Shown here in pieces: positions 2,462 to 59,695 of a stretch of 64,000 nt of DNA. A program made the position numbers and the translations under genes. Numbering within the stretch: position 1 is the first letter of the stretch; the number at the start of each line of letters is the position of its first letter. Where the stretch lies: the NCBI GenBank assembly GCA_030123765.1, contig JASJXX010000001.1, positions 21,210-85,209 of the forward strand, read 5' to 3'. The stretch is from Actinomycetota bacterium. Lineage in GTDB: Bacteria; Actinomycetota; Acidimicrobiia; Spongiisociales; UBA5794. The notes under the pieces were generated by a model that saw only the letters and a program-made list of their open reading frames with translations, did no database searches and was not told the origin of the DNA.

Positions 2462-3193
2462 CTATACCAGGTGGCCGCCTCCGTCCACACGGATAATCTC
2501 ACCGGTGATGAAGTCGTTCTCCAGCAAGAGAGCAACCGCGTCGGCAACAACCTGTGTGCCACCGACACGCGATAACGGCAGCTCGGCGGCGAGTTGCCCC
2601 GCATACCCATCACCCTCACCTGGCGGAGGCAGTATGACACCGAGAGCGACCGCGTTGACCCTGATGAGCGGTGCGAGGGAGAGAGCCGAGGCCCTGGTCA
2701 GCGTATCGATGCCGCCCTTCGCGAGCACATACGACAGGTGTTTACGATACGGCTTCGCCGTCCTGGCGTCCGTCACGTTCACGATCGCGCCACCGAGGCC
2801 CTCCGGTACCTGCCTTGCGAAAGCCTGAGTGAGGAGGAGCGGCGTCGCGAGCATCAGGTCCTGAGCGGCGCGGAACCCCTCGAGCGTCACATCTTCGATA
2901 GTGTCGAGAGGGAAACCCGACGCATTGTTCACAAGGATGGTCGGCGGTCCCAACGCGGCCGACGCAACATCGACCAGATGTCGGGCGATCTCAGGGTCGG
3001 AGAGGTCAAGAGATCCGATAGCCGCCACACCGCCCGCAGCGTTGATCTCGCGGTGAAGTGACTCAGCCTTGTCGGAGCTTTGGTGGTAGTGGATGAACAC
3101 GGCAGCACCCCGGCGTGCAAGCTCAGCGGAGATCGCACGCCCGACGCGCGCTGCCCCTCCGGTCACGATGGCTGTTCTTCCCGCAAGGTCCAT
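2462..3193 (-). CDS. Short-chain dehydrogenase/reductase, pteridine-reductase (FolM-like) candidate
   Basis: TAIVTGGAARVGRAI Rossmann motif plus an NNAS...YxxxK SDR signature. Sits at the head of the folB / folK::folE cluster. Start set at MDLAGRTAIVTGG (ATG at 3193). Confidence 0.7.
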   Translation of the reverse strand: MDLAGRTAIVTGGAARVGRAISAELARRGAAVFIHYHQSSDKAESLHREINAAGGVAAIGSLDLSDPEIARHLVDVASAALGPPTILVNNASGFPLDTIEDVTLEGFRAAQDLMLATPLLLTQAFARQVPEGLGGAIVNVTDARTAKPYRKHLSYVLAKGGIDTLTRASALSLAPLIRVNAVALGVILPPPGEGDGYAGQLAAELPLSRVGGTQVVADAVALLLENDFITGEIIRVDGGGHLV

Positions 3194-3247
3194 GCAACCA
3201 TCGTAGTGATCAAGCCCGCTGACTCGGATGCGCCTAAGCTCACCAGC

Positions 3248-3826
3248 GTGAGCAAGGAAGACCCGAAGCCGGGACGTTGGATACTCCCGATCGTCATCAC
3301 CGCGTTGATCGGGTTCACCTACGTCTTCGTGAACGCGCTCCCGGCGGCGGATGTCACGCCACCGGCGACCGCGGCGCGCCACGCCACGACGACAACGACG
3401 ACAACGATCCCGCAGACAACGACGTCAACAACGCTACCAATCGAGGTCCGGGCCTTCCTCCAGGAGCTCGACCGCTTCGAGAACATGGCGAGTGATCTTC
3501 AGAGTGAACTTGAAGACGTCAACACGAAGTGGGAGAACAGGGACATTCTCTTTAGCGCGGCAGATACAGGTTTCAGCGAGGTGAGAGAGGACGCTCAGGA
3601 CCTCGCCAACCAGATCGCCGCAGCCTCCGTCCCCGATCCGTTCACCACGGCGTGGCCTGACACCGTCGCGGCTTCCAAGGACCTCGTCGCGCAGCTGCAG
3701 ACAGTCATCGATGGACTCCGCGCACCGGACGACGGGACACTACGGCGGGCCGCCGTTGACAGCTACAGCGCGACGTCGGCAGCGTTCACCAAACAACTCG
3801 ACGTGGTCCGCGGGTTGACTCCGTAG
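3248..3826 (+). CDS. Hypothetical membrane-anchored protein with a poly-Thr linker
   Basis: GTG at 3248 avoids overlap with the SDR gene. One TM helix (WILPIVITALIGFTYVFV), a TTTTTTTIPQTTTSTT linker and a C-terminal domain of unknown type. Confidence 0.4.
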   Translation: MSKEDPKPGRWILPIVITALIGFTYVFVNALPAADVTPPATAARHATTTTTTTIPQTTTSTTLPIEVRAFLQELDRFENMASDLQSELEDVNTKWENRDILFSAADTGFSEVREDAQDLANQIAAASVPDPFTTAWPDTVAASKDLVAQLQTVIDGLRAPDDGTLRRAAVDSYSATSAAFTKQLDVVRGLTP

Positions 3827-3872: not shown

Positions 3873-4874
3873 CTACTCAGCCAGCTTGCTGCACACCGTC
3901 TCGGTGATCTTCGCTGCAACGAGGTAGGGGTCCGCGTTTGCGTTCGGGCGACGATCCTCGATGTAGCCCTTCTGATCCTGGTTGACCATCCACGGGATGC
4001 GCACCGAGGCGCCTCGGTCTGACACGCCGTACGAATACTCGGACCACGGCGCGGTCTCGTGCATGCCTGTCAAGCGGCTCTCGATGCCGGCGCCGTAGAC
4101 CGCTACGTGCTCATCAGGTTTCTCGCCGAGCGCCTCACACGCAGCAATGACTGGGTCCCAGCTCTCGCGCATCGCCTTCGTTGAGAAATTCGTGTGCATG
4201 CCAGCGCCGTTCCAATCGCCCTTGACCGGCTTGGGGTCCAGCGTTGCGGAGATCTCGTAGTCCTCTGCGATGCGATAGAGCAGCCAGCGAGCCAGCCAGA
4301 TCTCGTCGCCGATGGCGACCGTGTCGATCGGACCGATCTGGAACTCCCACTGGCCGATCATCACCTCGGCGTTCGTGCCTGAGATGGCAAGACCGGCCTC
4401 CATGCACGCCCACGTGTGCTCCTCAACGATGTCACGGCCCCATATCTCGTCCGCGCCGATGCCGCAGTAGTAGCCGCCCTGGGGCGCGGGGAAGCCGCCG
4501 ATCGGCCAACCATGCGGACGGCCATCCTTGAAGAACGTGTACTCCTGCTCCATGCCGAACCACGGCTCCTGATCTCCGTACTTCTCGAGGACGGCAACGG
4601 CGATAGCCCGCGTGTTCGTCTCATGCGGAGTCATGTCGACATTGAGCACCTCGCACAGGACAAGGATGTCGTTGCCGCCGCGGATCGGGTCGGGCACGAC
4701 CTTGACGGGGCGGAGCACGCAGTCGGATTTCTCTCCTGGCGCCTGCTCCGTCGATGAGCCGTCAAACGCCCATATCGGCTGCTCGGCGTCATCGGGGATC
4801 ACTTTCGTCTTGGATCGCAGTTTGGCGGTCGGCTTCTGACCATCGATCCAGATGTACTCGGCGCGATATGGCAT
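3873..4874 (-). CDS. glnII: Glutamine synthetase type II (eukaryote-like, 333 aa)
   Basis: MPYRAEYIWIDG...GIGADEIWGRDIVEEH...NGAGMHTNFST; the length and motifs are typical of GSII. Confidence 0.9.
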   Translation of the reverse strand: MPYRAEYIWIDGQKPTAKLRSKTKVIPDDAEQPIWAFDGSSTEQAPGEKSDCVLRPVKVVPDPIRGGNDILVLCEVLNVDMTPHETNTRAIAVAVLEKYGDQEPWFGMEQEYTFFKDGRPHGWPIGGFPAPQGGYYCGIGADEIWGRDIVEEHTWACMEAGLAISGTNAEVMIGQWEFQIGPIDTVAIGDEIWLARWLLYRIAEDYEISATLDPKPVKGDWNGAGMHTNFSTKAMRESWDPVIAACEALGEKPDEHVAVYGAGIESRLTGMHETAPWSEYSYGVSDRGASVRIPWMVNQDQKGYIEDRRPNANADPYLVAAKITETVCSKLAE

Positions 4875-5061: not shown

Positions 5062-6390
5062 ATGGAACGCCAGAAGGAGTATGTGCTCTCGACAGTGAAG
5101 GAGCGGGGTATCCGCTTCATCCGCCTGTGGTTCACGGACGTCCAGGGCTTCCTCAAGTCGTTCGCCATCACCCCCGCCGAACTCGAAGTCGCGCTCGATG
5201 AAGGCATGTCGTTCGATGGCAGCTCTATCGACGGGTTCGCCCGCACCCACGAGGCGGACATGCTCGCTAAGCCGGATCCCGCGACGTTCCAGATCCTCCC
5301 GTGGAGAAGTGGCGACGCTGGCGTGGCACGGATGTTCTGCGACATCGTCACCCCCGAGGGGGAGCCTTTCAGCGGTGATCCTCGCAACGTGCTGCGGCGC
5401 AACCTCGAGCGCGCCGCCGAGCTCGGTTACAGCTTCTACGTTGCACCGGAGATCGAGTATTTCTACTTCGAGGATTCGTCCGAAACCCCGAAGGTGCTCG
5501 ACAGGGGCGGCTACTTCGATCTCACGCCACTCGACGTCGCCCAGGAGTACCGGCGTTCCACGATCATGGCCCTTGAGGCGCTCGGCATCCCTGTGACGTT
5601 CAGCCACCATGAAGTCTCGCCATCCCAGCATGAGCTCGACCTTCGACACACGGACGCGCTCACGATGGCGGACAACATCATGACGACACGCCTCACGGTC
5701 AAAGAGGTCGCGATGGAGCACGGGATCTACGCGACGTTCATGCCCAAGCCGCTCGAGAAGTACGACGGGTCGGGCATGCATCTCCACCTCTCCTTGTTCC
5801 AGGGTGACGAGAATGCTTTCCACGACGAGGCGGGTGAGTACGGGTTATCGAAGGTAGCACACGGCTTCATTGCCGGTCTTCTCAAGCATGCTTCCGAGAT
5901 CACTGCCGTGACGAACCAGTGGGTCAACTCCTATAAGCGCCTTGTGAGCGGATTCGACGCCCCGACCTTCGAGACGTGGGCGAGGAACGATCAGAGCGCA
6001 CTCGTGCGCGTGCCCGCAACGAAGAAGGGGAAGATCGATTCGACACGGATCGAATTCCGCTCTCCCGACCCGGCGTGCAACCCTTACCTCGCACTCTCCG
6101 TGATCCTCGCCGCCGGCCTTGCCGGAGTCACGGGAGCCTACGAGCTGGCGCCCGAGGCCGGTTCGGACGTACTGAAGATGTCTACCGAGGAGCGGCGAGA
6201 AGCCGGGATCCGCCACATCCCGCACAGCCTCATCGACGCGATCACCCTCATGGAGGAGTCCGACCTGGTGCGCGATGCGCTCGGTGACCATGTGTTCTCC
6301 TGGTTCCTCAAGAACAAGCGACGTGAGTGGGCACGGTACGAGCAGCACGTGTCAGCGTACGAACTGAGGGAATTCCTACCGGTGTTGTGA
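5062..6390 (+). CDS. glnA2: Glutamine synthetase type I (GlnA2-like, 442 aa)
   Basis: MERQKEYVLSTVKERGIRFIRLWFTDVQGFLKSFAI...; the N-terminus closely matches GlnA2-type GSI, with the full GS catalytic-domain length. Confidence 0.9.
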   Translation: MERQKEYVLSTVKERGIRFIRLWFTDVQGFLKSFAITPAELEVALDEGMSFDGSSIDGFARTHEADMLAKPDPATFQILPWRSGDAGVARMFCDIVTPEGEPFSGDPRNVLRRNLERAAELGYSFYVAPEIEYFYFEDSSETPKVLDRGGYFDLTPLDVAQEYRRSTIMALEALGIPVTFSHHEVSPSQHELDLRHTDALTMADNIMTTRLTVKEVAMEHGIYATFMPKPLEKYDGSGMHLHLSLFQGDENAFHDEAGEYGLSKVAHGFIAGLLKHASEITAVTNQWVNSYKRLVSGFDAPTFETWARNDQSALVRVPATKKGKIDSTRIEFRSPDPACNPYLALSVILAAGLAGVTGAYELAPEAGSDVLKMSTEERREAGIRHIPHSLIDAITLMEESDLVRDALGDHVFSWFLKNKRREWARYEQHVSAYELREFLPVL

Positions 6391-7040: not shown

Positions 7041-7130
7041 CGGACCCGTCGCCTGACAGCAAGAGATGAGACGAGTCACAGGCCGTCTTGGGATTCTCCA
7101 TGCGGTCCGATGCCAGCCGGGGGTTGCGAG

Positions 7131-7838
7131 TCAGTCGGCGTTCCCCGACTCGACGATCTCTGTCGCGAATTTGGATGCGCCTGCGATCACCCGCCCGGAT
7201 CCCAAAGCCGCTGCTGCAAAGGCGACCGACACGCCAGCCTCGACCCACGTCACGATGTCAGAGACACAGCTGCTCATGACAACGCCCGGCTTCGAAACGG
7301 AGCCGCCCGTCGACGTTCCGCTTGCGTCCCACATCCAGCCAGATTCCATACCTGTCTCGCCCAGAGGGAGTATCTGCACGGTGCCGTCCGCGTACGTGTC
7401 GATGCACCTCGGATCGAGGTGGACGAATAACACCATGAAAGCTGCAGCACCCAATACCCAGACTGCGACGACGGCGCCGAGCGCCCGAAGAATTCCCTCT
7501 GGCTTGCTCCTCGCGTACATCCAGAGCCACACGACGCCGAGCGGAATTATCACAGGGCTCAAGACCCACATGCCCAACCCCAGCGTGATCGAGAGAACAC
7601 CGGCGGCGGCGAATAGGTTCGGCCTCCCACGCATCGCGAAGAGAGCAAGCGTTGGGGGGATGCTGAGCAGCGCGACGAACGCTATGTCGCCTGCAAGGCT
7701 GAGAGACACGGGTATTTGGCTGCCGAGCGCTCTCAGAGTGACCGCCGCCGCCGCAACGACGTAGCCGAGTACAAGGGAGAGACGTGCAGCACGCCCGGCC
7801 ACCCGGACCTCCGAATTCTGCGCTGTGGGCATGAGCAA
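7131..7838 (-). CDS. Hypothetical polytopic membrane protein (235 aa) inside the repeat-flanked insert
   Basis: Several predicted TM helices. I recognise no conserved motif. Confidence 0.45.
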   Translation of the reverse strand: MLMPTAQNSEVRVAGRAARLSLVLGYVVAAAAVTLRALGSQIPVSLSLAGDIAFVALLSIPPTLALFAMRGRPNLFAAAGVLSITLGLGMWVLSPVIIPLGVVWLWMYARSKPEGILRALGAVVAVWVLGAAAFMVLFVHLDPRCIDTYADGTVQILPLGETGMESGWMWDASGTSTGGSVSKPGVVMSSCVSDIVTWVEAGVSVAFAAAALGSGRVIAGASKFATEIVESGNAD

Positions 7839-8109: not shown

Positions 8110-8463
8110 ATGTCCAGTCTTGGAAAACGAAACGCCTTGTATGCTCGACTTGAGGAGGTACTCGGCCCAGAACACGCCGTCACTCTCATGAGCCACATCC
8201 CAACCGAAATCGACCTAGCCACCAAAGCCGACGTCGCTGCCTTGGGTGACCGGATCGACGCCCGGATAGACGGGATCGACGGCCGGTTCGAGCAAGTTGA
8301 GTCGCGCTTGGGTCGCCTTGAAGCCCACATGGTGCGATTCGACGACAAGCTCGACAGATTCCATGAAGCGCTCAGGGATCAGTCCCGCACGTACATGCTG
8401 ACAATGACCGGGGTGATGGCATCCTTCGCTGCGGTCATTATCGCGGCCGGCGTCCTCAACTGA
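8110..8463 (+). CDS. Hypothetical coiled-coil protein with a C-terminal TM anchor (117 aa)
   Basis: Heptad-like charged segment (RIDARIDGIDGRFEQVESRLGRLEAHMVRFDDKLDRFHEAL) followed by a hydrophobic tail. Confidence 0.4.
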   Translation: MSSLGKRNALYARLEEVLGPEHAVTLMSHIPTEIDLATKADVAALGDRIDARIDGIDGRFEQVESRLGRLEAHMVRFDDKLDRFHEALRDQSRTYMLTMTGVMASFAAVIIAAGVLN

Positions 8464-8464
8464 C

Positions 8465-8953
8465 TCAGCCACCCTCGAGCGTGTTCTCCGGGTGAATGCG
8501 ATGTTCGTAGTCGATGATCGGAGACTCATACGGACCGCTCATCAACGGCGACGAGATCAAGAAGTCGGCCGTTGACCGGTTGCACGCCATTGGAATGTTG
8601 TAAACCACGGCGATGCGCAAGAGCGCCTTCACGTCTACATCATGGGGTTGGGTCTGGAGCGGATCCCAGAAGAAGATGACGAGATCGATCTCGCCCTCCG
8701 CTATGCGAGCTCCGATCTGCTGATCTCCACCCAGTGGGCCGCTCTTGAACCGGGTGATGTCAAGATCGAGCTCGTCGGCGAGGATGCCTCCCGTCGTCCC
8801 GGTGGCGAAGAGGTCGTGCCCGGCAAGGACTTCCCTGTTGACTCTCGCCCATTGCAGCAGATCGGCTTTCCGATTGTCATGCGCGATGAGAGCGACGCGT
8901 TTCCGGTCGTGCATCACGCGCATCGGTACGTTTGGATCTTGGTTCTCAGCCAT
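8465..8953 (-). CDS. mgsA: Methylglyoxal synthase
   Basis: [17 protein letters not shown]...[11 protein letters not shown]...[12 protein letters not shown]...VIFFWDPL...[19 protein letters not shown]. Start set at MAENQ (ATG at 8953). Confidence 0.8.
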
Positions 8954-9126
8954 GGCCCTTCCGTTGTCGATGGCCGATTGATACCACGGTGAGACGAAGA
9001 ACAGTTGATCCCACGGTGAGTTTGGTGTAAAACTCACGCGCAGACGGCGTGCCAAGACCGGCCGTATCATGCAATCGCGAAACGGGAAACCGATCTACCG
9101 ATGAACATCTGGAAGGTGGTACGACG

Positions 9127-10095
9127 ATGAAAGCGATAGTCGTCTCCGAGCCGGGTGGGCCGGAGAAGCTCGTCCTCACCGAGGTGCGCGACCCGATCCC
9201 GGGCGACGACGAGATCCTCGTCTCTGCCATAGCTGCCGGCGTCAACTTCATCGACACCTACCACCGCAGTGGGCTCTACCCGATGGATCTCCCCTTCACG
9301 CCGGGTCTGGAGGGTGCCGGGACGATCCTCGCCGTCGGGCCTGGCGTAGCCGCGCATCGACCGGGCGACGTAATCGCGTGGACCCGGGCGGTCGGCTCGT
9401 ACGCAGAGAAGGTCGTTGTTCCCTGCGACCAGGCGATCCCACTCCCCGACAACATCTCCCCCTCGACCGCGGCAGCACTGCTGCTCCAGGGGATCACCGC
9501 CCACTACCTCGCGACCGACACCTTCCCGCTGAGAGAGGGCGACCGATGCCTGATCCACGCGGGTGCGGGCGGCGTCGGCCTCCTCCTCACCCAGATCGCC
9601 AAGATGGCTGGCGCAGAGGTCTTCACCACGGTCGGATCGCAGGAGAAAGCCCTGCTCAGTGCCGGCGCCGGGGCCGACCACGTGATCCTGTACAACGACA
9701 CAGACTTCAAAGAAGCAGTCGAGCAGATCACCGGCTCTCGGGCAATCGACGTGATCTACGACGGAGTTGGGGCGGCGACGTTCCTGAAAGGACTCGACCT
9801 GCTTCGTACCCGAGGGATGATGGTGACCTTCGGCAATGCCTCCGGACCGCCTCCAGACATCTCCCCCCTGGCCCTGGCAGGAAAAGGATCCCTCTTCCTC
9901 ACCAGACCGACAATGGCCCACTATGTGGCCACTCGTCCGGAGCTGCTGTCACGGACACGCGACCTCTTCGACTGGGTCGCCGAGGGCAGACTCGACGTGA
10001 GGATCGGCGCGGAGTTCGCTCTCGCCGACGCCGCCGAAGCCCATCGTGCCTTGGAAGGCCGAAGCACCACCGGTAAAGTTCTCATCAGACCGTAA
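9127..10095 (+). CDS. qor: NADPH:quinone oxidoreductase (zinc-free MDR family)
   Basis: MKAIVVSEPGGPEKLVL...IHAGAGGVGLLLTQIAK...GKVLIRP. Confidence 0.8.
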   Translation: MKAIVVSEPGGPEKLVLTEVRDPIPGDDEILVSAIAAGVNFIDTYHRSGLYPMDLPFTPGLEGAGTILAVGPGVAAHRPGDVIAWTRAVGSYAEKVVVPCDQAIPLPDNISPSTAAALLLQGITAHYLATDTFPLREGDRCLIHAGAGGVGLLLTQIAKMAGAEVFTTVGSQEKALLSAGAGADHVILYNDTDFKEAVEQITGSRAIDVIYDGVGAATFLKGLDLLRTRGMMVTFGNASGPPPDISPLALAGKGSLFLTRPTMAHYVATRPELLSRTRDLFDWVAEGRLDVRIGAEFALADAAEAHRALEGRSTTGKVLIRP

Positions 10096-10182: not shown

Positions 10183-12201
10183 TTACCTGTCTCCGGAGAA
10201 CGGGATCCAGGCGACATCGTCCAGCGTATCCAGATCGGATGCCAGCACGCCCATCTCCGAGAAGGTGAAGAGCGTTCCGCCAATGACGAGTGATCGATTG
10301 ATCGGCGCCGTCCATCCGGAGCACTCCTCACAGCCCGGGTCATTGACGTTCGGGTGGCGGATCTCACCGATCTGTTTCACCCGCTGGGGCGTCGCGGTCA
10401 CGACGACGGCGCCGGAGAAGTGGTCGTCCTTGCCGGTCCGCGCGTCCCACGACCAACGCTGCAGCGGCAACACCGCGATGCCTTCGGGCGCCCACCACAG
10501 GAAAGCTCGGTGGTCCCACTCGGCACCTGAGTGCGCGTCGTCGAACGTGAGCTTGGCGACGCGCCTCGGGTCGTTCGGATCGGAGACGTCAAAGACAGAG
10601 ACCTGGGTGCCGAGCATGCGGCCCCCGCTAGTCGCGTCCTGCCCGACGCCGAGGAGGAGGTCCTCACCGATCGGGTGCAGATACGCCGAGTATCCGTTGA
10701 TCTTCAACTCGCCCTTGAGCTGCGGATCGGTCGGGTCAGAGAGGTCAACGACGTACAGAGGGTCGACCTGACGGAACGTCACGACGTACGCCTTCTCCTG
10801 GATGAAGCGCACGGCGTAGACCCGCTCGTTCTTCCCGAGACCATCGACCGATCCGACCTCGACGAGCTCACCCCCACGACGCTGCATCGTGACGACCGCT
10901 GTATCGGGGACGTCCGACGAGCCCCACCACGGGTTCTCATCCGTCACCACGACCCGCAGCGTCCCCTCGTACTCATCCATCGACCACTGCGAGAGCAGCC
11001 GGCCCTCAACCTCACCCGATGCGACGTACCTGGCGGTTCTAGGGTTCGTGAGGTCAAACATGTGGATCTGGGTCCACAGGGAGTCCCGAGCGTCATCCCC
11101 TTGGAAACTCGCGGCGGGCCACACCATCCACGGTGACGTCGCAACGTACAGGTTCTCAGGTGATGCGTACACGGTCTGGCCTTCAGCGAGGAGGCCGATG
11201 CTGTTGCCAGGCTCGAGGCCGCTGTCGAGATCGATGGAGAGGATCGTCATCATCGAGAGACCTGCGAACTCGGTGGGATACCCGACCTGGTCACAGCCGA
11301 GGATCGCACCGTCCGAAGTGGTTCCTGCTCGGTGATCTTTGAGGACGTACCACGGAACCCAGTTCTCGATTGTCGAGTCCTCGATCAGCTTCTTGTTCGC
11401 TTCGACCGCTCTCTGCTCTGCTCTGATCCCGCCTCCCTCGGGGAACGCCCAGTCGAAACCGATCGGTCCCGAACGAACAACAACGCGGATCGTGCCGTCG
11501 GCCATACGCGAAGAGAGGATCGTCCCATCTAGCGTGAGGGTGCGGACGGTCTCCATGGAGGAGGGGTCGGACACATCGACCTCAGAGAGGACGACCCGCT
11601 GACTGTGTCCAGGCGCGATCCGAGAGACAGCGCCGCTAAAAGCCGGCTCGATGGCGTATCCACCGCCTGAGGTCATGACGAGTAGCCGGTCACCGGAGAG
11701 GAAGAGCTGCTGGCCCCAGCCCTCAAGGCGGATCGAGGCGACGATCTCGGGGGCGCCGGACGCGTCGATCCAGAACAGACGGCCCTGAGCAACGACGAAG
11801 ATGCGCTCCCCGTCCGTCTTGACGATGTCAGGCTCATCGATGCCCGCGACCTGCACGTTCGTCCCCGAGTAGTCGACACCCTCAACGGGAGCAGCACTCA
11901 CCCTCGACCCGCCGCCATCAGCTGAGACAGACTCCTCCGTCGCGAAGGAGACGCCACTGCTGAAGGCACCGTACGAGTCGAGTCCGTACGGTCCCACCCG
12001 CTCGATCGCGTGACGCTTCACATAGTCGAGGAAGTCGCCGCATGAGTCGAAGGGCCGCAACGCCGCGGCGGCGAAAGCCCGCTCTCCCGTAGGTCCCCGG
12101 CTCTCAATCGGTCGAGTGGTGGTAGTCGTGGTGGTGGTTGTTGCGTTACATGCTGTGAGCACCAGCCCGAGGGCCACCATCGTGATCGTCATCCGTCGCA
12201 T
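10183..12201 (-). CDS. Secreted lipoprotein with a poly-Thr linker and a beta-propeller-type domain (672 aa)
   Basis: Signal peptide with lipobox LTAC, then TTTTTTTTT. The large remainder resembles the Beta_propel / COG4880 family. Confidence 0.65.
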   Translation of the reverse strand: MRRMTITMVALGLVLTACNATTTTTTTTTRPIESRGPTGERAFAAAALRPFDSCGDFLDYVKRHAIERVGPYGLDSYGAFSSGVSFATEESVSADGGGSRVSAAPVEGVDYSGTNVQVAGIDEPDIVKTDGERIFVVAQGRLFWIDASGAPEIVASIRLEGWGQQLFLSGDRLLVMTSGGGYAIEPAFSGAVSRIAPGHSQRVVLSEVDVSDPSSMETVRTLTLDGTILSSRMADGTIRVVVRSGPIGFDWAFPEGGGIRAEQRAVEANKKLIEDSTIENWVPWYVLKDHRAGTTSDGAILGCDQVGYPTEFAGLSMMTILSIDLDSGLEPGNSIGLLAEGQTVYASPENLYVATSPWMVWPAASFQGDDARDSLWTQIHMFDLTNPRTARYVASGEVEGRLLSQWSMDEYEGTLRVVVTDENPWWGSSDVPDTAVVTMQRRGGELVEVGSVDGLGKNERVYAVRFIQEKAYVVTFRQVDPLYVVDLSDPTDPQLKGELKINGYSAYLHPIGEDLLLGVGQDATSGGRMLGTQVSVFDVSDPNDPRRVAKLTFDDAHSGAEWDHRAFLWWAPEGIAVLPLQRWSWDARTGKDDHFSGAVVVTATPQRVKQIGEIRHPNVNDPGCEECSGWTAPINRSLVIGGTLFTFSEMGVLASDLDTLDDVAWIPFSGDR

Positions 12202-17665: not shown

Positions 17666-18019
17666 TCAGCTGAAGCTCTTGCCACAGCCGCAGGTGCCCG
17701 AGACATTGGGATTCTCGATCGCGAACCCGGCCCCGGCCAATCCGTCGTCCTTGAAATCGACGATCGCGCCCGTGACCATCGATACGCTCGCGGCATCGAC
17801 CACGACCTTGACCCCGTCGGTCTCATTCACGATGTCCGACGGATCGATTGCAGAATCGAAGAACATGTCGTACGCGTACCCTGAGCAGCCTGACCGCTTC
17901 ACTCCGACGCGCAGAGCCATGTCTTTGTCACCTTCAGAAGCGATGAGCTCCTTGACCTTTGCAGCAGCGCTTGAGGTCAGTGTGACACCTTGCAGCTGAG
18001 CGATGTTGGGAGAAGTCAT
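17666..18019 (-). CDS. Fe-S cluster assembly A-type carrier (IscA/ErpA/HesB family)
   Basis: C-terminal SGTCGCGKSF motif. Start set at MTSPNI (GGAGG five nt upstream). The track's longer ORF is a 5' extension. Confidence 0.8.
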   Translation of the reverse strand: MTSPNIAQLQGVTLTSSAAAKVKELIASEGDKDMALRVGVKRSGCSGYAYDMFFDSAIDPSDIVNETDGVKVVVDAASVSMVTGAIVDFKDDGLAGAGFAIENPNVSGTCGCGKSFS

Positions 18020-18127
18020 TCGGGCCTCCGTCGTCATGAGTGTGTTCCGACCACCATGATAGTGGAATCTCTCGGATTTTACCACGAAACGTTTGCGGGA
18101 CGTCGACGTCCCGATACTCTTCACCTC

Positions 18128-19243
18128 ATGGTCACAGCAGCTGAGATTCGGGTCGCGCTCGCCAATGTGATCGATCCTGAACTCCACACCGACATCGTTG
18201 ACCTTGGCATGGTGGGGGAGATCGTGATCACCGATCGTGATGTCGAAGTTGGGATCGCGCTTACGATCGCCTCATGCCCGATGCGCGGCCAGATCGAAGC
18301 CGATGTGGAGCGGCGGGTTGCGTCGCTTCCCGGGGTCGACAAGGTGACGATCGCCATGTCGGTCATGTCCCAGGAGCAGCGCTCAACGCTCATGGAGCGG
18401 GCCCGCAAGCGAGCACGCGAGACCGCAAAGCCCACAGCCGTCTCACCGTCGACTCGCGTGATCGCAGTCAGCAGTGGAAAGGGCGGCGTAGGCAAGTCGT
18501 CCTTGAGCGTCAACCTCGCTCTCGCCATCACCAATCTCGGCCACAGCGTCGGACTCCTCGACGCGGATATCTGGGGCTTCTCAGCTCCCCGGATGCTCGG
18601 TGTTGTAGAGACACGGCTCAACGCGAACGCAGACCGCAAGATCGTTCCGACCGAGGCATACGGCATTCATCTCGTGTCGACGGGTCTCCTGCTTGAGAAC
18701 GAGGAGACGGCGCTCATGTGGCGAGGCCTGATGTTGAGCAAGGCGGTAGAGCAGTTCCTCAACGACGTGGCATGGCCCTCCGACCTCGGCTATCTCGTTA
18801 TCGACATGCCTCCCGGCACAGGTGACGTCCAGATGGCGCTCGCCCGGCTACTCCCCCAGGCTGAGATGGTTGTGGTCACCACACCCCAGATCGCCGCTCA
18901 GAAGGTCGCGTCAAGAGTCGCGGACATGGCCCGCAGATCGCACATGCCGATCATCGGCGTGGTCGAGAACATGGCTGGCTTCACGACAGAGGACGGCACC
19001 CGCCACGACATCTTCGGATCTGGCGGGGGAGCATCGCTCGCCAACGACCTCGGCGTTGAGCTGCTCGGGTCGATCCCCATCGATCCAGACGTCGCTTCCG
19101 GGGGTGACTCGGGTGACCCGGTCGTGATTGCGCAGCCCGAGGGCTTCGCAGGGGCAGCGATCATCGCAATCGCGGCGCGTGTCGTCGAGATCCTGCCTCC
19201 CCTCCAGCTCGACTCCTGCATCGGGCGCCTCAGCGCGCTGTGA
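18128..19243 (+). CDS. apbC: Mrp/ApbC-family Fe-S cluster carrier ATPase
   Basis: N-terminal DUF59-like segment, Walker A SGKGGVGKSS and a CxxC motif. Start at MVTAAEIRVAL. Confidence 0.85.
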   Translation: MVTAAEIRVALANVIDPELHTDIVDLGMVGEIVITDRDVEVGIALTIASCPMRGQIEADVERRVASLPGVDKVTIAMSVMSQEQRSTLMERARKRARETAKPTAVSPSTRVIAVSSGKGGVGKSSLSVNLALAITNLGHSVGLLDADIWGFSAPRMLGVVETRLNANADRKIVPTEAYGIHLVSTGLLLENEETALMWRGLMLSKAVEQFLNDVAWPSDLGYLVIDMPPGTGDVQMALARLLPQAEMVVVTTPQIAAQKVASRVADMARRSHMPIIGVVENMAGFTTEDGTRHDIFGSGGGASLANDLGVELLGSIPIDPDVASGGDSGDPVVIAQPEGFAGAAIIAIAARVVEILPPLQLDSCIGRLSAL

Positions 19244-19400: not shown

Positions 19401-20627
19401 CTATCCGCAGAGGGCCTTCACGAGAGGGTAGGGATTCACCCAGTCGCCACCGGGTGGGGCATACTCGAAGTGGAGATGCGGCAACCAGTTCGGTGAGTTC
19501 CCGCTCGAACCGTTGTAGCCAACAACGTCCCCGACGGTCACTGACGTCCCTCTAGAAATGTCGGCAGCGAGCGCTTCAAGATGTGCGTAGTAGTAGCGGC
19601 TCCCGGATACACCCGTCAGATGGATCGTGATCCCACCGAGCGTGCTGTTGGATGTGCGGGTGATCACGCCGGACTCGATGGCGACGAGCGGCGCGTTCCG
19701 CGCAGCCATCATGTCGACACCCCTGTGGCTCCGGCCGCCGGATCTCGGCGCGCCCCAGGTGTCTGAGAAGCTCGTTGCGGCATTGACCGGACACGCCCTG
19801 TCGTGAGTGATGGCCGGCGGTAGCGGAGCCTGGGTCGTGGTTGTCGTAGATGCCACCGTTGTCGTCGTCGTGTCGCCGCTGCTCATGGTGGTGGTCGTGG
19901 TGGTCGTGGTCGTGGTCGGGATGGTCGTCGGAACGGTCGTGGTCGTCGTTGTTGTCGTAGCCCGTCGCGCGGCCGCTGCCGCGGCTCTTCTTGCGGCCTC
20001 CTCGCGGCGCAGGCGCTCCTCCTCAGCCTTCAGGCGCTTCTCTTCCTCCTGTCGCTCGAACGCGACCGCCATGGCGTTGTAGGCAGCGTCAGCGCTCTCG
20101 AGTTGGGTGAGGATCTCATGAGTGAGGCCACCTATCTCCTCCACGAGCACCTCCTGGGCTCGCAAGGACTGATCCAGGTCGGCCCGGTGCGCAACGTGGA
20201 GAGCTTCGACGGATTCAAGACCCCGTAGGAGTGCAAGATCTCGCTCGTTCGCAACTTCGTAGTATCGAGCCTGGACGGGGAGGTCGGTGAATGTCCGGGC
20301 CGTGAACACTCGCTCGGTTCCCAGCGGGCCGCCGGCCATGTATCGAGCAACGACGAGCGCCTCGACCTCGGACCGCTTCGTGCCGATCTCCTGCTCAAGG
20401 CGGGATACGGACCGCGACAGCTCCAAGATCCGTTCCCTGGCCAGGGTCTCGCTCGCGACGGCCGCCTCGAAACGTGCGGTGATCTCCTCAAGGGAGGCGG
20501 AGACTCCGCGGCGCGCCGCGAGAGCCGAAGCGACGTCCTGTTCGGTGATCTCACCCGATGTCTGTGCATATACGGGCGAAGCGAACGCGACGATCAGCAC
20601 CAGGGCGGCGGCGAATCGATTACGCAT
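19401..20627 (-). CDS. Secreted M23 (LytM-type) metallopeptidase with an N-terminal coiled-coil and a poly-Thr linker
   Basis: Signal peptide, a long coiled-coil, T-rich linker, then CP...WGAPRSGGRSHRGVD...YYYAHL...HLH of the M23 domain. Paralog of 46589-47680. Confidence 0.8.
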   Translation of the reverse strand: MRNRFAAALVLIVAFASPVYAQTSGEITEQDVASALAARRGVSASLEEITARFEAAVASETLARERILELSRSVSRLEQEIGTKRSEVEALVVARYMAGGPLGTERVFTARTFTDLPVQARYYEVANERDLALLRGLESVEALHVAHRADLDQSLRAQEVLVEEIGGLTHEILTQLESADAAYNAMAVAFERQEEEKRLKAEEERLRREEAARRAAAAAARRATTTTTTTTVPTTIPTTTTTTTTTTMSSGDTTTTTVASTTTTTQAPLPPAITHDRACPVNAATSFSDTWGAPRSGGRSHRGVDMMAARNAPLVAIESGVITRTSNSTLGGITIHLTGVSGSRYYYAHLEALAADISRGTSVTVGDVVGYNGSSGNSPNWLPHLHFEYAPPGGDWVNPYPLVKALCG

Positions 20628-22558: not shown

Positions 22559-22643
22559 GACAGGAACGTAGTACGCATCGCGTACCACGGGGTACAAGAC
22601 GCTTCGGTCCAGCGAAGGGCTGCGGGTGTTTATCCTGCTCCGA

Positions 22644-23987
22644 ATGGACCTGCGTGATCTGCCCTCCGTAACGACCCTCGCCGACGACATCGCGAGAGGA
22701 TCCACTCTCCCTCGACCTGTCATCACCCAGGTGTGCCAGGAAGCGATCGACCAGACGCGCGAAGCGATTCAATCCGGCAGGGATGCCGATGCCGGAGCTC
22801 TGGCGGCCGCAGCACTCGCCGACATCGAGGCAGCACGTCCGCGCTCGGTTATCAACGCAACGGGTGTGCTCCTCCATACGAACCTCGGCAGGGCCCGTGT
22901 GAGCCACTCCGTCGCCGCCGCGTCCTCGACGATCCAGTCAGCGGCGAGCAACGTCGAGATCGACCTACGCACCGGCCGAAGATCTAGCCGCTCCACGTAT
23001 CTGCGAGTCCTGCTCCCTGTCGTCACCGGGTCCGAGGACGGATTCGCGGTGAACAACAACGCCGGTGCTCTATTGCTCGCGCTCGCTTCCATCCCCGGTC
23101 AAGCCAGACAAGTAGCAGTATCACGAGGCGAGCTCATCGAGATCGGTGGCTCTTTCCGCCTCCCCGATCTCATGGCTGCAAGTGGCGTACAACTCGTCGA
23201 AGTCGGCACTACGAATCGGACGCGCCTCTCCGACTACGCGGCGGTCGCCGCTTCGGTCGATGCGCTACTGAAGGTCCACCCCTCCAATTACCGGGTCGAG
23301 GGTTTCCAGGAGGAAGCGAGCTACGCCGATCTCGCCGAGCTCGCCCACTCCCACGGCATCCCGTTCCTCGCGGACGTGGGAAGCGGCCTCATCGACGAAG
23401 CCGCTCCGTGGCTAGCAGACTCCGACCGCCGCTGGCTGGCGGGCGAGCCGGGCGTCAAACAGACGATTGCAGATGGTGCCGACCTCGTCCTGTTCTCCGG
23501 CGACAAGCTGCTTGGTGGCCCCCAAGCAGGCATCATCGTCGGCACACACGACGCTGTTGAGCGGGCCGCGCGCCACCCGATCGCACGAGCCGTGCGGCTC
23601 GACGGCTCGCGTATCGCTGCTGTCGCGGCGACGCTCGAGAGCTACGCGCATCATCGCGTTGACAACCTCCCGTTCTGGGCGATGGCCGGCGCGAGCGTCA
23701 CCGACATCAATGAGCGGGCACACGAGGTGATCCGCGGTCTGTCTCCGGGCATACGCATCGTCGACGGGCGCTCCATCCCCGGTGCGGGATCGGTCCCCGG
23801 CGCGACCATCCCCACGAAACTGATCGAGCTACCCGGTCCAGCGGACGGTATGTGGTCGGGGTTGGCGGCCTGCGAACCACCCGTCATCGCGAGCCGTCGC
23901 GAGGCGCACACACTTCTCGACCTGCGATCGGTGCTCCCGGATGACGACGCGAACGTCGCCGCCGCTCTCCGAAGAGTTTTGAGCTGA
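22644..23987 (+). CDS. selA: L-seryl-tRNA(Sec) selenium transferase
   Basis: DLRDLPSV...VINATGVLLHTNLGRA...SGDKLLGGPQAGIIVG...; the length and motifs are typical of SelA. Confidence 0.85.
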   Translation: MDLRDLPSVTTLADDIARGSTLPRPVITQVCQEAIDQTREAIQSGRDADAGALAAAALADIEAARPRSVINATGVLLHTNLGRARVSHSVAAASSTIQSAASNVEIDLRTGRRSSRSTYLRVLLPVVTGSEDGFAVNNNAGALLLALASIPGQARQVAVSRGELIEIGGSFRLPDLMAASGVQLVEVGTTNRTRLSDYAAVAASVDALLKVHPSNYRVEGFQEEASYADLAELAHSHGIPFLADVGSGLIDEAAPWLADSDRRWLAGEPGVKQTIADGADLVLFSGDKLLGGPQAGIIVGTHDAVERAARHPIARAVRLDGSRIAAVAATLESYAHHRVDNLPFWAMAGASVTDINERAHEVIRGLSPGIRIVDGRSIPGAGSVPGATIPTKLIELPGPADGMWSGLAACEPPVIASRREAHTLLDLRSVLPDDDANVAAALRRVLS

Positions 23988-23988
23988 C

Positions 23989-25758
23989 GTGCCGATCGTT
24001 GGCACGGCAGGTCACGTCGACCACGGCAAGTCAACGCTCGTTCAGGCACTCACGGGCCGAGACCCGGACCGGTGGGCGGAGGAGAAGGAGCGCGGCCTGA
24101 CGATCGACCTCGGTTTCGCCTGGACCGAGATCGAAGGCATCGACGTCGGGTTCGTGGATGTGCCGGGACATGAGCGCTTCATCAAGAACATGCTCGCCGG
24201 TGTCGGAGGCATCGACTGTGCCCTCCTCGTAGTTGCGGCCGACGGTGGATGGATGCCCCAGACAGAGGAGCACGCGGCGGTACTCGACCTGCTCGACACC
24301 AGGGCCGGCGTCATCGCTCTCACCCGAATCGACCTCGTCGATGACGACACGCGAGAACTCGCAGCGCTCGAGATCATGGAGGAGACCGCCGGAACGGTGC
24401 TCGCGGACTGGCCGATTGTGCCCGTGTCCCCCATCACGGGGGAGGGTCTTGATGAGTTGCGCGCGCAGCTGGCTACAGCCCTCGGCCGTCACAAGCCGCT
24501 GGTGGCCGGACCGCTGCGCATGTGGATCGACCGGTCCTTCACGATCAGCGGCGCGGGGGTCGTCGTCACGGGAACCGTCTCAGGCGGTCGGATCGCCATC
24601 GGAGACGAGGTTGCGATCCTCCCAGGAGGCCGCTCTGACCGCGTCAGGGGCCTCCACCATCACGACCATGCGGTCGATGAAGCCAGCGCGGGATCACGAA
24701 CGGCGATCAACCTCCAGTCTTCCTCGCTCACCGATGTGCCTCGTGGGACCTTGATCTGCACACCGGGGACGATCGCGGAGACCGGGCGCATCCTCACGAC
24801 CATCGAGCCGGCACGCGGCTTCGATGAAATTCCTCCACGCGGCGCCTTCCACGTCCACCTCGGAACGGCACACATTCCGGTCCAGATCAGGCAGCTTCAC
24901 GACTCCAACGCGTACATGCTCACCCTCTCAGACGTGCTCCCCGTAGCCATCGGTGATCGATTCATCCTACGCGACACCGGCCGGAGAGCAGTCGTCGGCG
25001 GCGGTCGGGTACTCGACCCACGACCCGCGGATCGAGTCTCGATGGAGACGATCGAACTTCTCGCAGGATCCCTCGACCGTCCAGTGCGCGACGTGGCGGA
25101 TGCCCTCCTCACCGTGCGCGGGATCACCCGCGCAGACGACCTGGCAGAGGCGGCAGGGGGAGTGGCTCCGTCCTGCGGAACGCGCGCGGGACCACTCATC
25201 ATCTCCGAAGCAGCGATCGCCGACATCGCTCTGCGCATTACCGACATCGTCGGGAGATATCACGACGCGCATCCGCTTCGCCCAGGAATGGCAAAGCCAG
25301 AAGTCGCCACCCGGATCGGTTTGGACCTCGCTGTGATCGAGGCCACGGTTCGAGAGTCGGAGAGCCTTCGCGAGTCGAACGGGTCCATTCATCTCGTCGA
25401 CTTCGTCAACGCTCTGACACCCCAGCAGGAGTCAACATGGGAGAGGGTACGATCCGACCTCGAAGCATCGTACGACGTACCGAGGATGGGCGTCATCGAC
25501 CTGGACTCTGAGCTGCTTCATGCGCTGGTACGGCGCGGTGACCTCATCCAGGTAGCGCCCGACCTCGTCTTCACCCAACGTCAGGTCAACAGCCTCACCC
25601 AACGTCTCGGCGAACTCCCTGAGGGCTTCACGGTCTCGCAGTTCAAGGAGGCGTTCGGCATGACCAGGCGCCAGGCGATACCCACACTCGAGTGGCTCGA
25701 CAAGTCGGGGTGGACCCGAAGGTCAGGAGACGGCAGGTCCCTCAGACGACGGACGTAG
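23989..25758 (+). CDS. selB: Selenocysteine-specific elongation factor
   Basis: IVGTAGHVDHGKSTLV...DVPGHERFIKNM...; an EF-Tu-like GTPase with a long C-terminal winged-helix extension (589 aa). It is separated from the selA stop by 1 nt. Confidence 0.85.
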   Translation: MPIVGTAGHVDHGKSTLVQALTGRDPDRWAEEKERGLTIDLGFAWTEIEGIDVGFVDVPGHERFIKNMLAGVGGIDCALLVVAADGGWMPQTEEHAAVLDLLDTRAGVIALTRIDLVDDDTRELAALEIMEETAGTVLADWPIVPVSPITGEGLDELRAQLATALGRHKPLVAGPLRMWIDRSFTISGAGVVVTGTVSGGRIAIGDEVAILPGGRSDRVRGLHHHDHAVDEASAGSRTAINLQSSSLTDVPRGTLICTPGTIAETGRILTTIEPARGFDEIPPRGAFHVHLGTAHIPVQIRQLHDSNAYMLTLSDVLPVAIGDRFILRDTGRRAVVGGGRVLDPRPADRVSMETIELLAGSLDRPVRDVADALLTVRGITRADDLAEAAGGVAPSCGTRAGPLIISEAAIADIALRITDIVGRYHDAHPLRPGMAKPEVATRIGLDLAVIEATVRESESLRESNGSIHLVDFVNALTPQQESTWERVRSDLEASYDVPRMGVIDLDSELLHALVRRGDLIQVAPDLVFTQRQVNSLTQRLGELPEGFTVSQFKEAFGMTRRQAIPTLEWLDKSGWTRRSGDGRSLRRRT

Positions 25759-27420: not shown

Positions 27421-27509
27421 CCCGAGAGGGTACCAACTCGCCGCACGCCAGATGGCACGTCACCGGTCTCGCGCTGTGCGTACCCCGCACTCCGTACTAC
27501 GTTCTCCCC

Positions 27510-27878: not shown

Positions 27879-27930
27879 CCGCAAGGCAGGAACCGATAGA
27901 GGAGCTATACACTCCCCGCCATCGGGACGT

Positions 27931-28007
27931 GGCGCAGCTTGGTAGCGCGCATCGTTCGGGACGATGAGGCCGTCGGTTCGAATCCGACCGTCCCGACCAA
28001 GCCCCTC
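27931..28007 (+). tRNA. tRNA-Pro (anticodon CGG)
   Basis: Folded by hand. Acceptor CGGGACG/CGTCCCG, D-stem GCGC/GCGC, anticodon stem CATCG/CGATG with loop TTCGGGA, T-arm GTCGG-TTCGAAT-CCGAC, discriminator A and an encoded CCA. Confidence 0.85.
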
Positions 28008-53163: not shown

Positions 53164-54188
53164 TGCGAGCACTCGTCAAGGCCAGGCCGGAGCCGGGACT
53201 GTGGATGGAGGAGATCCCGATTCCGCGCGTCGGTCCGAACGACGTTCTCATCAAGGTGACCAAGACGTCTATCTGTGGCACCGACCTCCACATCGTCGCG
53301 TGGGATGAGTGGGCTCGCGAAACCGTCCCTGTCCCCATGACCCTCGGCCACGAATACGTCGGCGTCGTAGCGGAGGTCGGCGCCGAAGTCGAGGGCATCG
53401 AGGTGGGGCGGCGCGTCTCGGGCGAGGGCCACATCGTGTGCGCACGCTGCCGCAACTGCCAGGCGGGCCGGAGGCACCTGTGCATCAACACGGTTGGCGT
53501 AGGGATCGACCGCCCGGGTGCTTTCGCAGAGTATGTCGCTATCCCGGGATCGAACGTGCAGCCGATCCCGGACGGCATCGCTGACGACATCGCGAGCATC
53601 CTCGACCCTCTCGGAAACGCGGTACACACAGCACTCCAATTCGATCTCGTCGGCGAGGACGTCCTCATCACCGGGTCCGGCCCGATCGGGATGATGGCCG
53701 TTGCCATCGCACGTCACGTAGGGGCGCGGTTCATCGTCGTGACCGACGTGAACGACTACAGACTCGAGCTCGCAGAGACGATGGGGGCGGACAGAGAATT
53801 GAACGTCACGAGAGACTCCGTGGCCGACGTGATGGATGATCTCGGAATGAAGGAAGGCTTCGACGTTGGACTTGAGATGTCCGGTGATCCCGCTGCGCTG
53901 CACGACATGATCACCACGATGAACAACGGGGGCAAGATCGCTCTCCTGGGCATCCCCCCGAAGCAGGCGCCGATCGATTGGAACGACATCGTGTTCAAGG
54001 GGTTGACGCTCCAGGGCATCTACGGAAGACGGCTGTTCGAGACCTGGTACAAGATGCTCGCAATGCTTCAGACAGGGCTCGATGTCTCTCCGGTGATCAC
54101 CCACCACTTCGCGGCAGAGGAGTACGAGGACGCGCTCGATGTCATGCAGTCAGGCGACACTGGCAAGGTCATCCTCGACTGGACCTAG
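53160..54188 (+). CDS. tdh: L-threonine 3-dehydrogenase
   Basis: Zn-dependent MDR motifs (GHEYVG..., GSGPIG); overlaps kbl by 4 nt. Confidence 0.9.
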
Positions 54189-54232
54189 CGACGGGTGACC
54201 GGTGACGGGCGGCAGTGTCGTAGCCTTGAGGC

Positions 54233-55075
54233 GTGGGCCGACGTTTCGTCATCCGCGATGCCTCGCGAGTTGGAACCGACATCGTCCGGCTCGTCGTTGA
54301 GGCGCCACGAGTCGCTCGGCACGCCCGGCCGGGGCAGTTCGTGATCGTCCGTTCCGGTGAACACGGTGAGCGTATCCCCCTCACTAGTCGCAGCACCGAC
54401 GCTGCCGAGGGAACGATCACCCTCATCGTCCAGGCAGCTCGCAGCACACCACGAACAAGATCAATCAGAAGGGCGCAGGAGACCACTTCAGGGATGTGCT
54501 GGGACCGCTCGGCACTCCATCCCACATCGAACGATTCGGTACCTGCGTCCTCGTCGCCGGAGGAATCGGAGCGGCGATCGTTCTCCCCGTAGCCGAGGCT
54601 CTCGCGGAGGCGGGGTACGTTGCCATCGGCATCGTGGGGGTCCGCGACAGTGAACACCTGGTCCTCCTCGACGAGATGCGTGCCGCGTGCAACGAGGTGA
54701 TCGTGACGACGGACGACGGGTCTGAGGGCCTGCACGGCCTTGTGACCGACGCCCTCGTAACTCTCATGGCGGAGACCGCCATCGACTATGTGTTTACCGC
54801 AGGACCGATCCCAATGATGCAAGCTGTCGCCGAGCGGACGCGTCAAGACGCCATCGCCACCGTTGCGAGCCTGAACCCTCTCATGGTCGACGGCACCGGC
54901 ATGTGCGGCGGGTGCAGAGTGACCATCAACGGTGCATCGAAGTTCGCTTGTATCGACGGCCCCGAAATCGATGCACACGATGTCAACTTCGCGTTGCTCG
55001 GTACGCGAACCGGGGCGTACCTCTCCTTTGAATCCTGCAAGCTCGATGAGGCGGTCGAGGCTCTGGATGCCTGAA
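54233..55075 (+). pseudogene. Frameshifted nfnA/sudB/pyrK-like ferredoxin-NADP reductase small subunit
   Basis: The N-terminal part (RFVIRD...PGQFVIVR...ERIPLT...GTITLIVQ) is in one frame. The remainder (GDHFRDVLGPLGTPSHI...GGIGAAIV...GTGMCGGCRV 2Fe-2S motif) is in a different frame from about 54440. Confidence 0.6.
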
Positions 55076-55557
55076 CGCACGAAGCGCGAGCGCATGAAGA
55101 TGGAGCGCACCGCCGTTCCGAGACAGAGATGCCAGCTCGGAGCGAGGAGATCGCCCACGCCCTGGAAGAGGGCGTCCACATCCGCTTCCTCATCGCCCCA
55201 ACATCATTCAACGGCGCAGAGGGGTGGCTCTCGAGTGTCACGATCCAGAAGATGCAGCTCGGAGAGCCCGACGCCGACGGGCGAGCGCGGCCGGATCCGA
55301 TCCAGGGCGCGTTCGAGACAATCGACGCAGACGTAGTCGTTGTCGCCATCGGCAACGCGCCGAATCCTCTCCTCACGAAGTCCACGCCAGCCCTCACAAC
55401 GAGCCCGTGGGGCACGATCGAGATCAACGAGGAGACAGGCCTCACATCGATCCCCGGCGTGTTCGCCGGGGGCGACATCACAACCGGCAGCGCAACCGAG
55501 GTCCTTGCTCTCGCTGCGGGACGCCGCGCCGCGGCTGCTATCGATGACTATCTCTGA
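55067..55557 (+). pseudogene. Remnant of a GltD/NfnB/SudA-like large subunit with an internal deletion
   Basis: A GltD-type N-terminus MPERTKRERMKME... at 55067 overlaps the upstream stop (ATGCCTGA). It then jumps, in a different frame, to the C-terminal ~145 residues (...RRSETEMPARSEEIAHALEEGV...MQLGEPDADGRARP...GVFAGGD...IDDYL). Confidence 0.55.
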
Positions 55558-58784: not shown

Positions 58785-58957
58785 CAGTATGGCCACAGTC
58801 GTCGTTAGCGTCTCCGCCGACAGAGCGCTCATCAAGAGCGGTTGAGGGACGGGCCCTGTGAAACCGCAGCAACCGGTGACATCGCCATCCGGCGACGAGC
58901 ACGGGGCGGAGGGAAGCTCGTCTCGTGGCAGGATGGCTTCGGGACCGGAGCGGTGCG

Positions 58958-59695
58958 ATGATGCTCGAACTCGCCTCCGTCTCCCTGCGCTATCCGAACG
59001 GCCACCACGCCATCGAGGGAATCAACCTCTCTGTGCCCGCGAGGTGCATCGTGGTCATGATCGGGGTGAGCGGATGCGGCAAGAGCACACTGCTGCGTCT
59101 GGTGGCCGGCCTTGAGCAGCCAACGTCGGGGACGGTCTCGGTCGCCGGTGAGATCGTCGACCGTCCTACCCGCCATGTCGGTTTCGTATTCCAGGAACCC
59201 CGGCTCATGCCCTGGCTGACAGTCTCGGAGAACGTCACCTTCGGGTTGGCGGACCGCCCGAGGAAGGAGCGGGATGCCGTCGCAGCCCGCGTCCTCGACC
59301 GGATCGGGCTCGCGGACTTCGGGCGTGCTCTCCCCAAGCAGCTCTCGGGGGGTATGGCCCAACGCGTCGCCCTTGCTCGTGCGCTCGTCGGCGACCCGGA
59401 GGTGCTGCTGCTCGACGAGCCATTCAATGCGCTTGACGCGCTCACCCGATCGGACCTTCAACAACATCTGCTCGACCTGTGGGCCGTCGACCACCGAACG
59501 ATGCTGCTCGTCACTCACGATATCGACGAGGCGCTCAGGCTCGCCGACACCATCGTGGTTCTCGCCGGTCAGCCGGGCCGTATCGTCGACCAGGTCGACA
59601 TCGACGACCCCCGACCGCGGGATCTCACATCTGAGAGATTGGCATCGATTCGTCGCTGGGTAATCGCCGGGCTATCGGTGACCCCCAAGACCTGA
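58958..59695 (+). CDS. ABC transporter ATP-binding protein (NitT/TauT-type), orphan
   Basis: Walker A GVSGCGKST, LSGGMAQRVALARAL. No permease gene is adjacent. Confidence 0.8.
   Translation: MMLELASVSLRYPNGHHAIEGINLSVPARCIVVMIGVSGCGKSTLLRLVAGLEQPTSGTVSVAGEIVDRPTRHVGFVFQEPRLMPWLTVSENVTFGLADRPRKERDAVAARVLDRIGLADFGRALPKQLSGGMAQRVALARALVGDPEVLLLDEPFNALDALTRSDLQQHLLDLWAVDHRTMLLVTHDIDEALRLADTIVVLAGQPGRIVDQVDIDDPRPRDLTSERLASIRRWVIAGLSVTPKT

Follow-up and report, generated by a model that had tools for sequence, protein, structure and literature searches.

An intact selA-selB operon in an uncultured Acidimicrobiia chromosome, with its partner genes very probably elsewhere in the genome

The subject of this work is a selA-selB operon located in 64,000 nucleotides (nt) of DNA from an uncultured actinobacterium of the class Acidimicrobiia (GTDB order Spongiisociales, UBA5794; assembly GCA_030123765.1, contig JASJXX010000001.1, forward-strand positions 21,210 to 85,209). 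This whole stretch, with a GC content of 62.7%, is referred to as the window and all coordinates below are counted from its first letter. A first-pass annotation, made from the letters alone, had described a selA-selB operon beginning at ATG 22644 with 1-nt spacing between the genes, and both the coordinates and the spacing hold, on the basis of equivalog-level scores, direct reading of the junction (...AGC TGA c GTG CCG...) and conservation of the start codon in 11 relatives. The elements of the operon are:

22644..23987, plus strand: selA, L-seryl-tRNA(Sec) selenium transferase, 447 amino acids (aa) from the conserved ATG, with stop codon TGA at 23985-23987
23989..25758, plus strand: selB, selenocysteine-specific elongation factor, 589 aa, GTG start and TAG stop
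22631..22636, plus strand: TATCCT, candidate -10 element of TANNNT form, 7 nt ahead of the selA ATG

For selA, the GTG at 22626 offers a possible alternative start; the ATG at 22644 is kept in 11/11 relatives and the GTG is not.

For the product of selA the score is 406 bits with the NCBIfam equivalog TIGR00474 (cut-off 267.9), over profile positions 1-454 of 455, and 341.9 bits with the Pfam family PF03841. Residues 3-447 align with the structure of A. aeolicus SelA (3w1h) with an E-value of 4.9e-82; the alignment begins at residue 3, opposite residue 5 of 3w1h, and extends beyond the N-terminally truncated construct 3w1i, so that the predicted protein includes the N-terminal tRNA(Sec)-binding domain. 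The motifs NLGRA, SGDKLLGGPQAG and PIARAVR are all retained, including invariant Arg residues in the first and last of these, and residues K288 (in SGDKLLGGPQAG), R83, R315 and R318, which align with 3w1h, do not vary among 8 homologues. From the A. aeolicus structure we take the Lys of the GDKLLGGPQAG motif to be the residue that binds pyridoxal phosphate (PLP) and the Arg residues to form the selenophosphate site.

The SelB assignment is based on a score of 322.8 bits against the NCBIfam equivalog TIGR00475 (cut-off 242.25) over profile positions 2-581 of 581, while the second-best family, aIF2-gamma, reaches 145 bits and falls under its own cut-off. The Pfam domains GTP_EFTU, Beta-barrel_SelB and SelB-wing_3 are found, the last of these (PF09107) with 52.7 bits at residues 542-584, and residues 3-586 align with residues 2-606 of E. 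coli SelB on the ribosome (5lzb_z) with an E-value of 1.7e-75. In this alignment the motifs GHVDHGKS, DVPGHE, WIDRSF and GSRTAINL and the C-terminal winged helix RRQAIPTLEWLDKSGWTRR match those of the E. coli protein; the IDR motif and the downstream Arg presumably line the pocket for selenocysteine (Sec). The C-terminal winged-helix extension, predicted to bind the selenocysteine insertion sequence (SECIS), is thus present as well.

A scan of one genome per species with SelA gave 48 selA loci. The 11 closest of these derive from uncultured Acidimicrobiia/Acidimicrobiaceae-type metagenome-assembled genomes (MAGs), with identities of 60-72% for SelA and 52-68% for SelB, and 11/11 show the gene order of the window, namely IscA, Mrp, M23 peptidase, metallo-beta-lactamase (MBL) hydrolase, NUDIX, FxsA, selA, selB and WhiB, followed by NfeD, response regulator, tRNA-Pro, enoyl-CoA hydratase, Asd and Ask. 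Wherever a contig end does not cut the locus, selA and selB each appear as one uninterrupted full-length high-scoring segment pair, the exception being selA of a single relative, L004. Ratios of nonsynonymous to synonymous substitution rates (dN/dS, Nei-Gojobori) are approximately 0.09-0.16 for selA and selB, with dS saturated, above 1, and the flanking MBL and NUDIX genes give similar values; first values involving L004 were left out as they are distorted by its internal TGA. Because the open reading frames (ORFs) are, L004 selA apart, uninterrupted and dN/dS is ∼0.1 in these 11 relatives, selAB is, as judged from sequence comparison, a pair of maintained genes and not a relic.

The region upstream of selA shows a second conserved pattern. 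In 12/12 genomes (the window and the 11 Acidimicrobiia relatives) the selA ATG is preceded, at a distance of 6-8 nt, by a TANNNT hexamer, for which the background frequency at a random position is 0.9%, and in none of the 12 is there a Shine-Dalgarno-like motif within 17 nt of the ATG. Leaderless transcripts occur in actinobacteria, and by analogy the pattern suggests that the selAB mRNA may be leaderless too. The fxsA-selA spacer, 84 nt long and bounded by fxsA, yields no consensus base pairs (RNAalifold, 11 genomes). A SECIS-like hairpin in a selAB 5' leader was considered and rejected, since the single-sequence fold (z = -2.9) is not conserved. A scan for E. coli-type sigma-70 promoters upstream of selA returned nothing, which speaks neither for nor against a leaderless message.

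A different motif, CGTACTACGTT, with the palindromic core CGTA-N-TACG, occurs at 22565-22575 and at 27493-27503, in each case preceded by GTACCCCG and positioned exactly 6 nt before an ATG, that of fxsA (minus strand) and that of an orphan response-regulator gene at 27510 (plus strand), respectively. Two matches are found where 0.17 are expected, and the 10-mer is retained at the fxsA site in 6 relatives. Probably it serves both genes as the -10 region of leaderless mRNAs, or else acts as an operator.

We turn now to the partners of selAB. The first-pass annotation had listed tRNA-Pro as the only tRNA in the window and had found neither a tRNA-Sec near selAB nor selD, statements that all survive the more extensive searches described here. 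The one tRNA is:

27923-27999: tRNA-Pro(CGG), sole tRNA in the 64 kb (ARAGORN; Rfam gathering threshold)

ARAGORN calls no tRNA-Sec (selC) in the window, although it does call tRNA-SeC in three loci of the comparison set (L035, L042, L043) that serve as a positive control. At gathering thresholds Rfam reports tRNA-Pro and an S-adenosylmethionine (SAM) riboswitch alone, the additional matches obtained in the window at E ≤ 10 being noise with no tRNA-Sec among them, and a custom scan of both strands for a YTTCARN anticodon loop with a closing stem of at least 5 base pairs finds none. Nor is there room for selC in the fxsA-selA spacer, given its length of only 84 nt. Among the ∼60 ORFs of the window, Pfam and NCBIfam scans detect neither an AIRS/SelD protein nor a molybdopterin formate dehydrogenase, nor any member of another known selenoprotein family, and tblastn of the window with a SelD query (L043 7247-8287, verified at 380 bits against TIGR00476) gives no match at E ≤ 10. 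In the 11 related MAG loci the same picture emerges, with no tRNA-Sec or SelD within ±10 kb in any of them.

It has also been stated in the first-pass annotation that no ORF pair in the window is split by an in-frame TGA. Taken literally this is incorrect, as four same-frame pairs meet at a TGA (3059, 37147, 51892 and 55072); what does stand is that none of the four is a selenoprotein candidate. Our survey listed and read through all same-frame ORF pairs split by TGA and inspected how 56 genes extend past a TGA at either end; every intergenic gap was also searched for ORFs that contain a TGA, have a coding-type GC content at third codon positions (GC3) and are followed by a hairpin. The upstream half of the pair at 3059 is an Arg-rich antisense of a minus-strand ORF, that at 37147 consists of a complete GlpX followed by the antisense of recR, that at 51892 of two separate genes, a PerM-like permease and a Kbl-like ligase, and that at 55072 of SudB-like and GltD-like fragments without a redox Sec motif. 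No CxxU/UxxC-type motif or two-sided coding signal was seen at any of the TGA junctions or extensions of the 56 genes, and the gap scan returned just gene leaders, antisense frames and a complete YbaB (confirmed by Pfam); overall, the cases are separate genes, antisense frames, gene leaders or ordinary TGA stops. An initial strict GC3 scan had given a single hit, at 19804, that is an antisense artefact of a Thr run. We also examined the IscA/HesB-family gene at 17666-18187, because HesB-like selenoproteins exist; it ends normally in CGCGKSFS-stop, there is no start codon 5' of its upstream TGA, and it was discarded as a candidate. A complete Sec-decoding trait is therefore not contained in the window, where a tRNA-Sec, selD and a gene with UGA and SECIS are each missing, and the check for an overlooked Sec gene turned up nothing credible.

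Might such a gene have escaped the scans nonetheless, in the form of a small selenoprotein of the Actinomarina type, or a tRNA-Sec in non-canonical form, as an allo-tRNA-like selC? Small selenoproteins without homologues do escape standard callers (bioRxiv 10.64898/2026.04.03.716425), Pfam recognizes nothing in several ORFs of the window (3080-3826, 7066-7764, 59765-60709, 48-719 and 63402-63992), and four same-frame pairs do meet at a TGA. Against this stand the outcomes of the junction, extension and gap readings, together with a window in which no UCA anticodon stem-loop is found and Rfam is negative for tRNA-Sec even at the relaxed threshold, so that we consider a missed gene or tRNA in these 64 kb very improbable.

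Two regions encountered in the survey deserve description in their own right. At 54388-55557 (plus strand) the TGA at 55072-55074 stands between two abutting ORFs in the same frame. The first encodes part of a SudB/PyrK-like protein (NAD_binding_1 and DHODB_Fe-S_bind) without the N-terminus that binds flavin adenine dinucleotide, and of a GltD/SudA-like Pyr_redox_2 protein the second retains just ∼140 aa at the C-terminus. The two ORFs resemble a sudBA-type ferredoxin:NADP oxidoreductase pair that has decayed, and the minus-strand ORF 54169-55179 that overlaps them has no Pfam match. Long poly-threonine runs (TTTTTTTT...) occur in several predicted secreted proteins or lipoproteins, at 19401-20627 (minus), 10183-12201 (minus) and 3080-3826 (plus), with the M23 peptidase and a beta-propeller protein among the carriers; it is the antisense of one such run that produced the hit at 19804.

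How unusual is it for selAB to be found apart from its partners? In E. coli K-12, selC, selD and selenoprotein genes are all missing from the 49 kb around selAB, and within our comparison set selC lies within 10 kb of selA in 3/48 loci and selD in 7/48; contig ends cut some of the loci, which makes both counts lower bounds but leaves the trend clear. That selD is seldom contiguous to selAB was noted by Romero et al. (PMC1273633), while in a 2026 study the mycobacterial layout, a selD-selC-selAB-fdhA cluster, is set against that of E. coli, where selC is distant (PMC13449736). Within the class Acidimicrobiia itself, selA, selC and selD are scattered over the chromosome in complete Actinomarinales genomes, each with ∼5 predicted selenoproteins (bioRxiv 10.64898/2026.04.03.716425). 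The layout of the window is not unusual, since unlinked selC and selD are common, as established by the E. coli control, by the remaining 45/48 and 41/48 loci and by the literature (PMC1273633). It is the common dispersed form, already documented in this class: real, but ordinary. The significance that the first-pass annotation implied for the missing partners is for this reason not supported.

The opposite arrangement is illustrated by locus L043, a Solirubrobacterales chromosome (OY969580.1) with a compact selD-selC-selB-selA cluster. Its SelB ORF (8323-9957) matches TIGR00475 only over positions 2-351 of 581, and the ORF as listed overlaps selC; this SelB may be a short form with a divergent or reduced C-terminal SECIS-binding region.

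Taken together, the intact genes, the retained motifs, the purifying selection, the conserved neighborhood and the partners absent from the window support an operon whose partners are elsewhere. The uncultured member of the Acidimicrobiia from which the window derives very probably carries a functional, chromosomal selA-selB operon of the canonical bacterial kind, with its partners at other sites in the genome as in E. coli. In this scheme SelA, a PLP enzyme, would convert Ser-tRNA(Sec) to Sec-tRNA(Sec) with selenophosphate as donor, an activity assigned from its family. SelB, a GTPase, would use its EF-Tu-like domains to hold Sec-tRNA(Sec) and its C-terminal winged helices to bind the SECIS hairpin and, with GTP, would bring Sec to in-frame UGA codons marked by SECIS. 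The two genes, separated by 1 nt, would be translationally coupled and are probably transcribed as a leaderless mRNA from the TANNNT box 7 nt upstream of the ATG, within a stable housekeeping block that runs from IscA through Ask, while the selenoprotein genes and their SECIS elements would be found elsewhere in the genome, as would selC and selD.

Several observations weigh against this picture. Neither for the organism, over 64 kb, nor for its 11 closest relatives, over ±10 kb, has a selC, selD or selenoprotein gene been seen, and completeness of the trait follows from the fact that selection acts on selAB and not from observation. SelA and SelB are conserved somewhat less than their housekeeping neighbors (pN/pS ∼0.39 for pairs involving the window, compared with 0.25-0.33), the selA gene of L004 carries an in-frame TGA at codon 57, which may point to loss in some lineages, and what supports leaderless transcription is a sequence pattern. 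The L004 locus is that of QMQC01000024.1, a MAG of Actinobacteria bacterium B3_G11, with the selA TGA at nt 207-209; the affected position belongs to a poorly conserved N-terminal linker and is Ala in the window, and the remaining ORF is intact and 71% identical. Misassembly, a nonsense mutation or read-through may account for the TGA.

The absence of partners in both sets of loci and the premature TGA of one relative are also what one would cite in favor of selAB being a relic pair, in a lineage that has lost selC and/or selD, makes no selenoproteins and retains the two genes transiently; an orphan SelA in Helicobacter pylori is discussed in PMC4607533. Over a divergence that saturates dS, however, frameshifts and relaxed dN/dS would be expected of relics, whereas the genes are full length at every uncut locus despite aa identities of 52-72% between species-level lineages, with only the L004 selA interrupted, dN/dS remains at ∼0.1, the catalytic and SECIS-binding residues are invariant and non-linkage of selC and selD is in any case the norm. 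Decay of this kind is, in our estimation, highly unlikely. A slightly smaller probability still is given to the claim that an Acidimicrobiia lineage, at the level of a family, keeps selAB under purifying selection while lacking selC and/or selD; if true, the pair would have to act independently of Sec, or else a non-canonical tRNA or selenium donor would have to be involved. Least probable of all is that a lineage without selenoproteins has recruited SelA and SelB to a function other than Sec insertion, for example a different tRNA-dependent conversion of an amino acid. Nothing direct speaks for it and it is a logical possibility only, raised by selC and selD not having been seen, while the scores of both proteins exceed the equivalog cut-offs and the selenophosphate and PLP residues and the SECIS-binding winged helix are conserved as in the characterized enzymes. 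A milder variant of the reading in which selAB persists without selC and/or selD is, finally, a complete trait that would serve uncatalogued small selenoproteins and be expressed from a leaderless mRNA, with regulation unlike the E. coli and mycobacterial paradigms.

With a functional operon as the preferred interpretation, this uncultured Acidimicrobiia lineage very probably uses selenocysteine, its selAB genes residing in a stable housekeeping block. No concept is changed by this, but for annotation of the genome Sec-aware gene calling is advisable. A leaderless selAB message would be a small lineage-specific detail; were it confirmed, neither the feedback through a SECIS-like leader known from E. 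coli nor the co-transcription with selC known from mycobacteria would apply here.

Two further features of the window are unrelated to Sec. The first is the riboswitch noted above:

58826-58901, plus strand: SAM (S-box) riboswitch, Rfam 46.9 bits against a gathering score of 44.4

The gene immediately downstream of it encodes an ABC-transporter ATPase (58925-59695) and is followed by the ORF 59765-60709 without Pfam match, and the unit is presumably a methionine-related uptake system. The second is a short glutamine synthetase of 333 aa at 3873-4874 (minus strand), with only a partial Gln-synt_C match of 71.6 bits, that lies next to the full-length type I glnA at 5062-6390 (plus strand) in divergent orientation and that we take to resemble a short GSII-type enzyme.

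A comparison with known systems places the operon closest in organization to selAB of E. coli (b3591-b3590), where selA likewise precedes selB in tight coupling, with a 4-nt overlap in place of the 1-nt gap, where both proteins are full length and can be aligned end to end with those described here, and where selC, selD and the selenoprotein genes lie outside ∼50 kb. The regulation may differ. In E. coli a SECIS-like leader bound by SelB represses selAB (PMC13449736), whereas here the 84-nt spacer is without conserved structure and the TANNNT box 7 nt from the ATG suggests that there is no leader; the neighboring genes are unrelated as well. The Sec cluster of mycobacteria and Solirubrobacterales shares with the window the phylum Actinomycetota and orthologous selA and selB genes, SelA being 39% identical to that of L043, but in that cluster selC is directly beside selA or selB, selD is adjacent and fdhA nearby (PMC13449736; L042, L043), while the window has no selC or selD in the 22 kb that precede selAB or the 38 kb that follow, and the 11 related loci have none within 10 kb. 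The Actinomarinales belong to the same class and have dispersed selA, selC and selD genes in a trait that is retained throughout the lineage (bioRxiv 10.64898/2026.04.03.716425). They represent a different order, with genomes of ∼1.1 Mbp as against a window of 62.7% GC, and their selB is reported to be divergent and below the KofamScan threshold, unlike the SelB described here, which scores well above the TIGR00475 cut-off.

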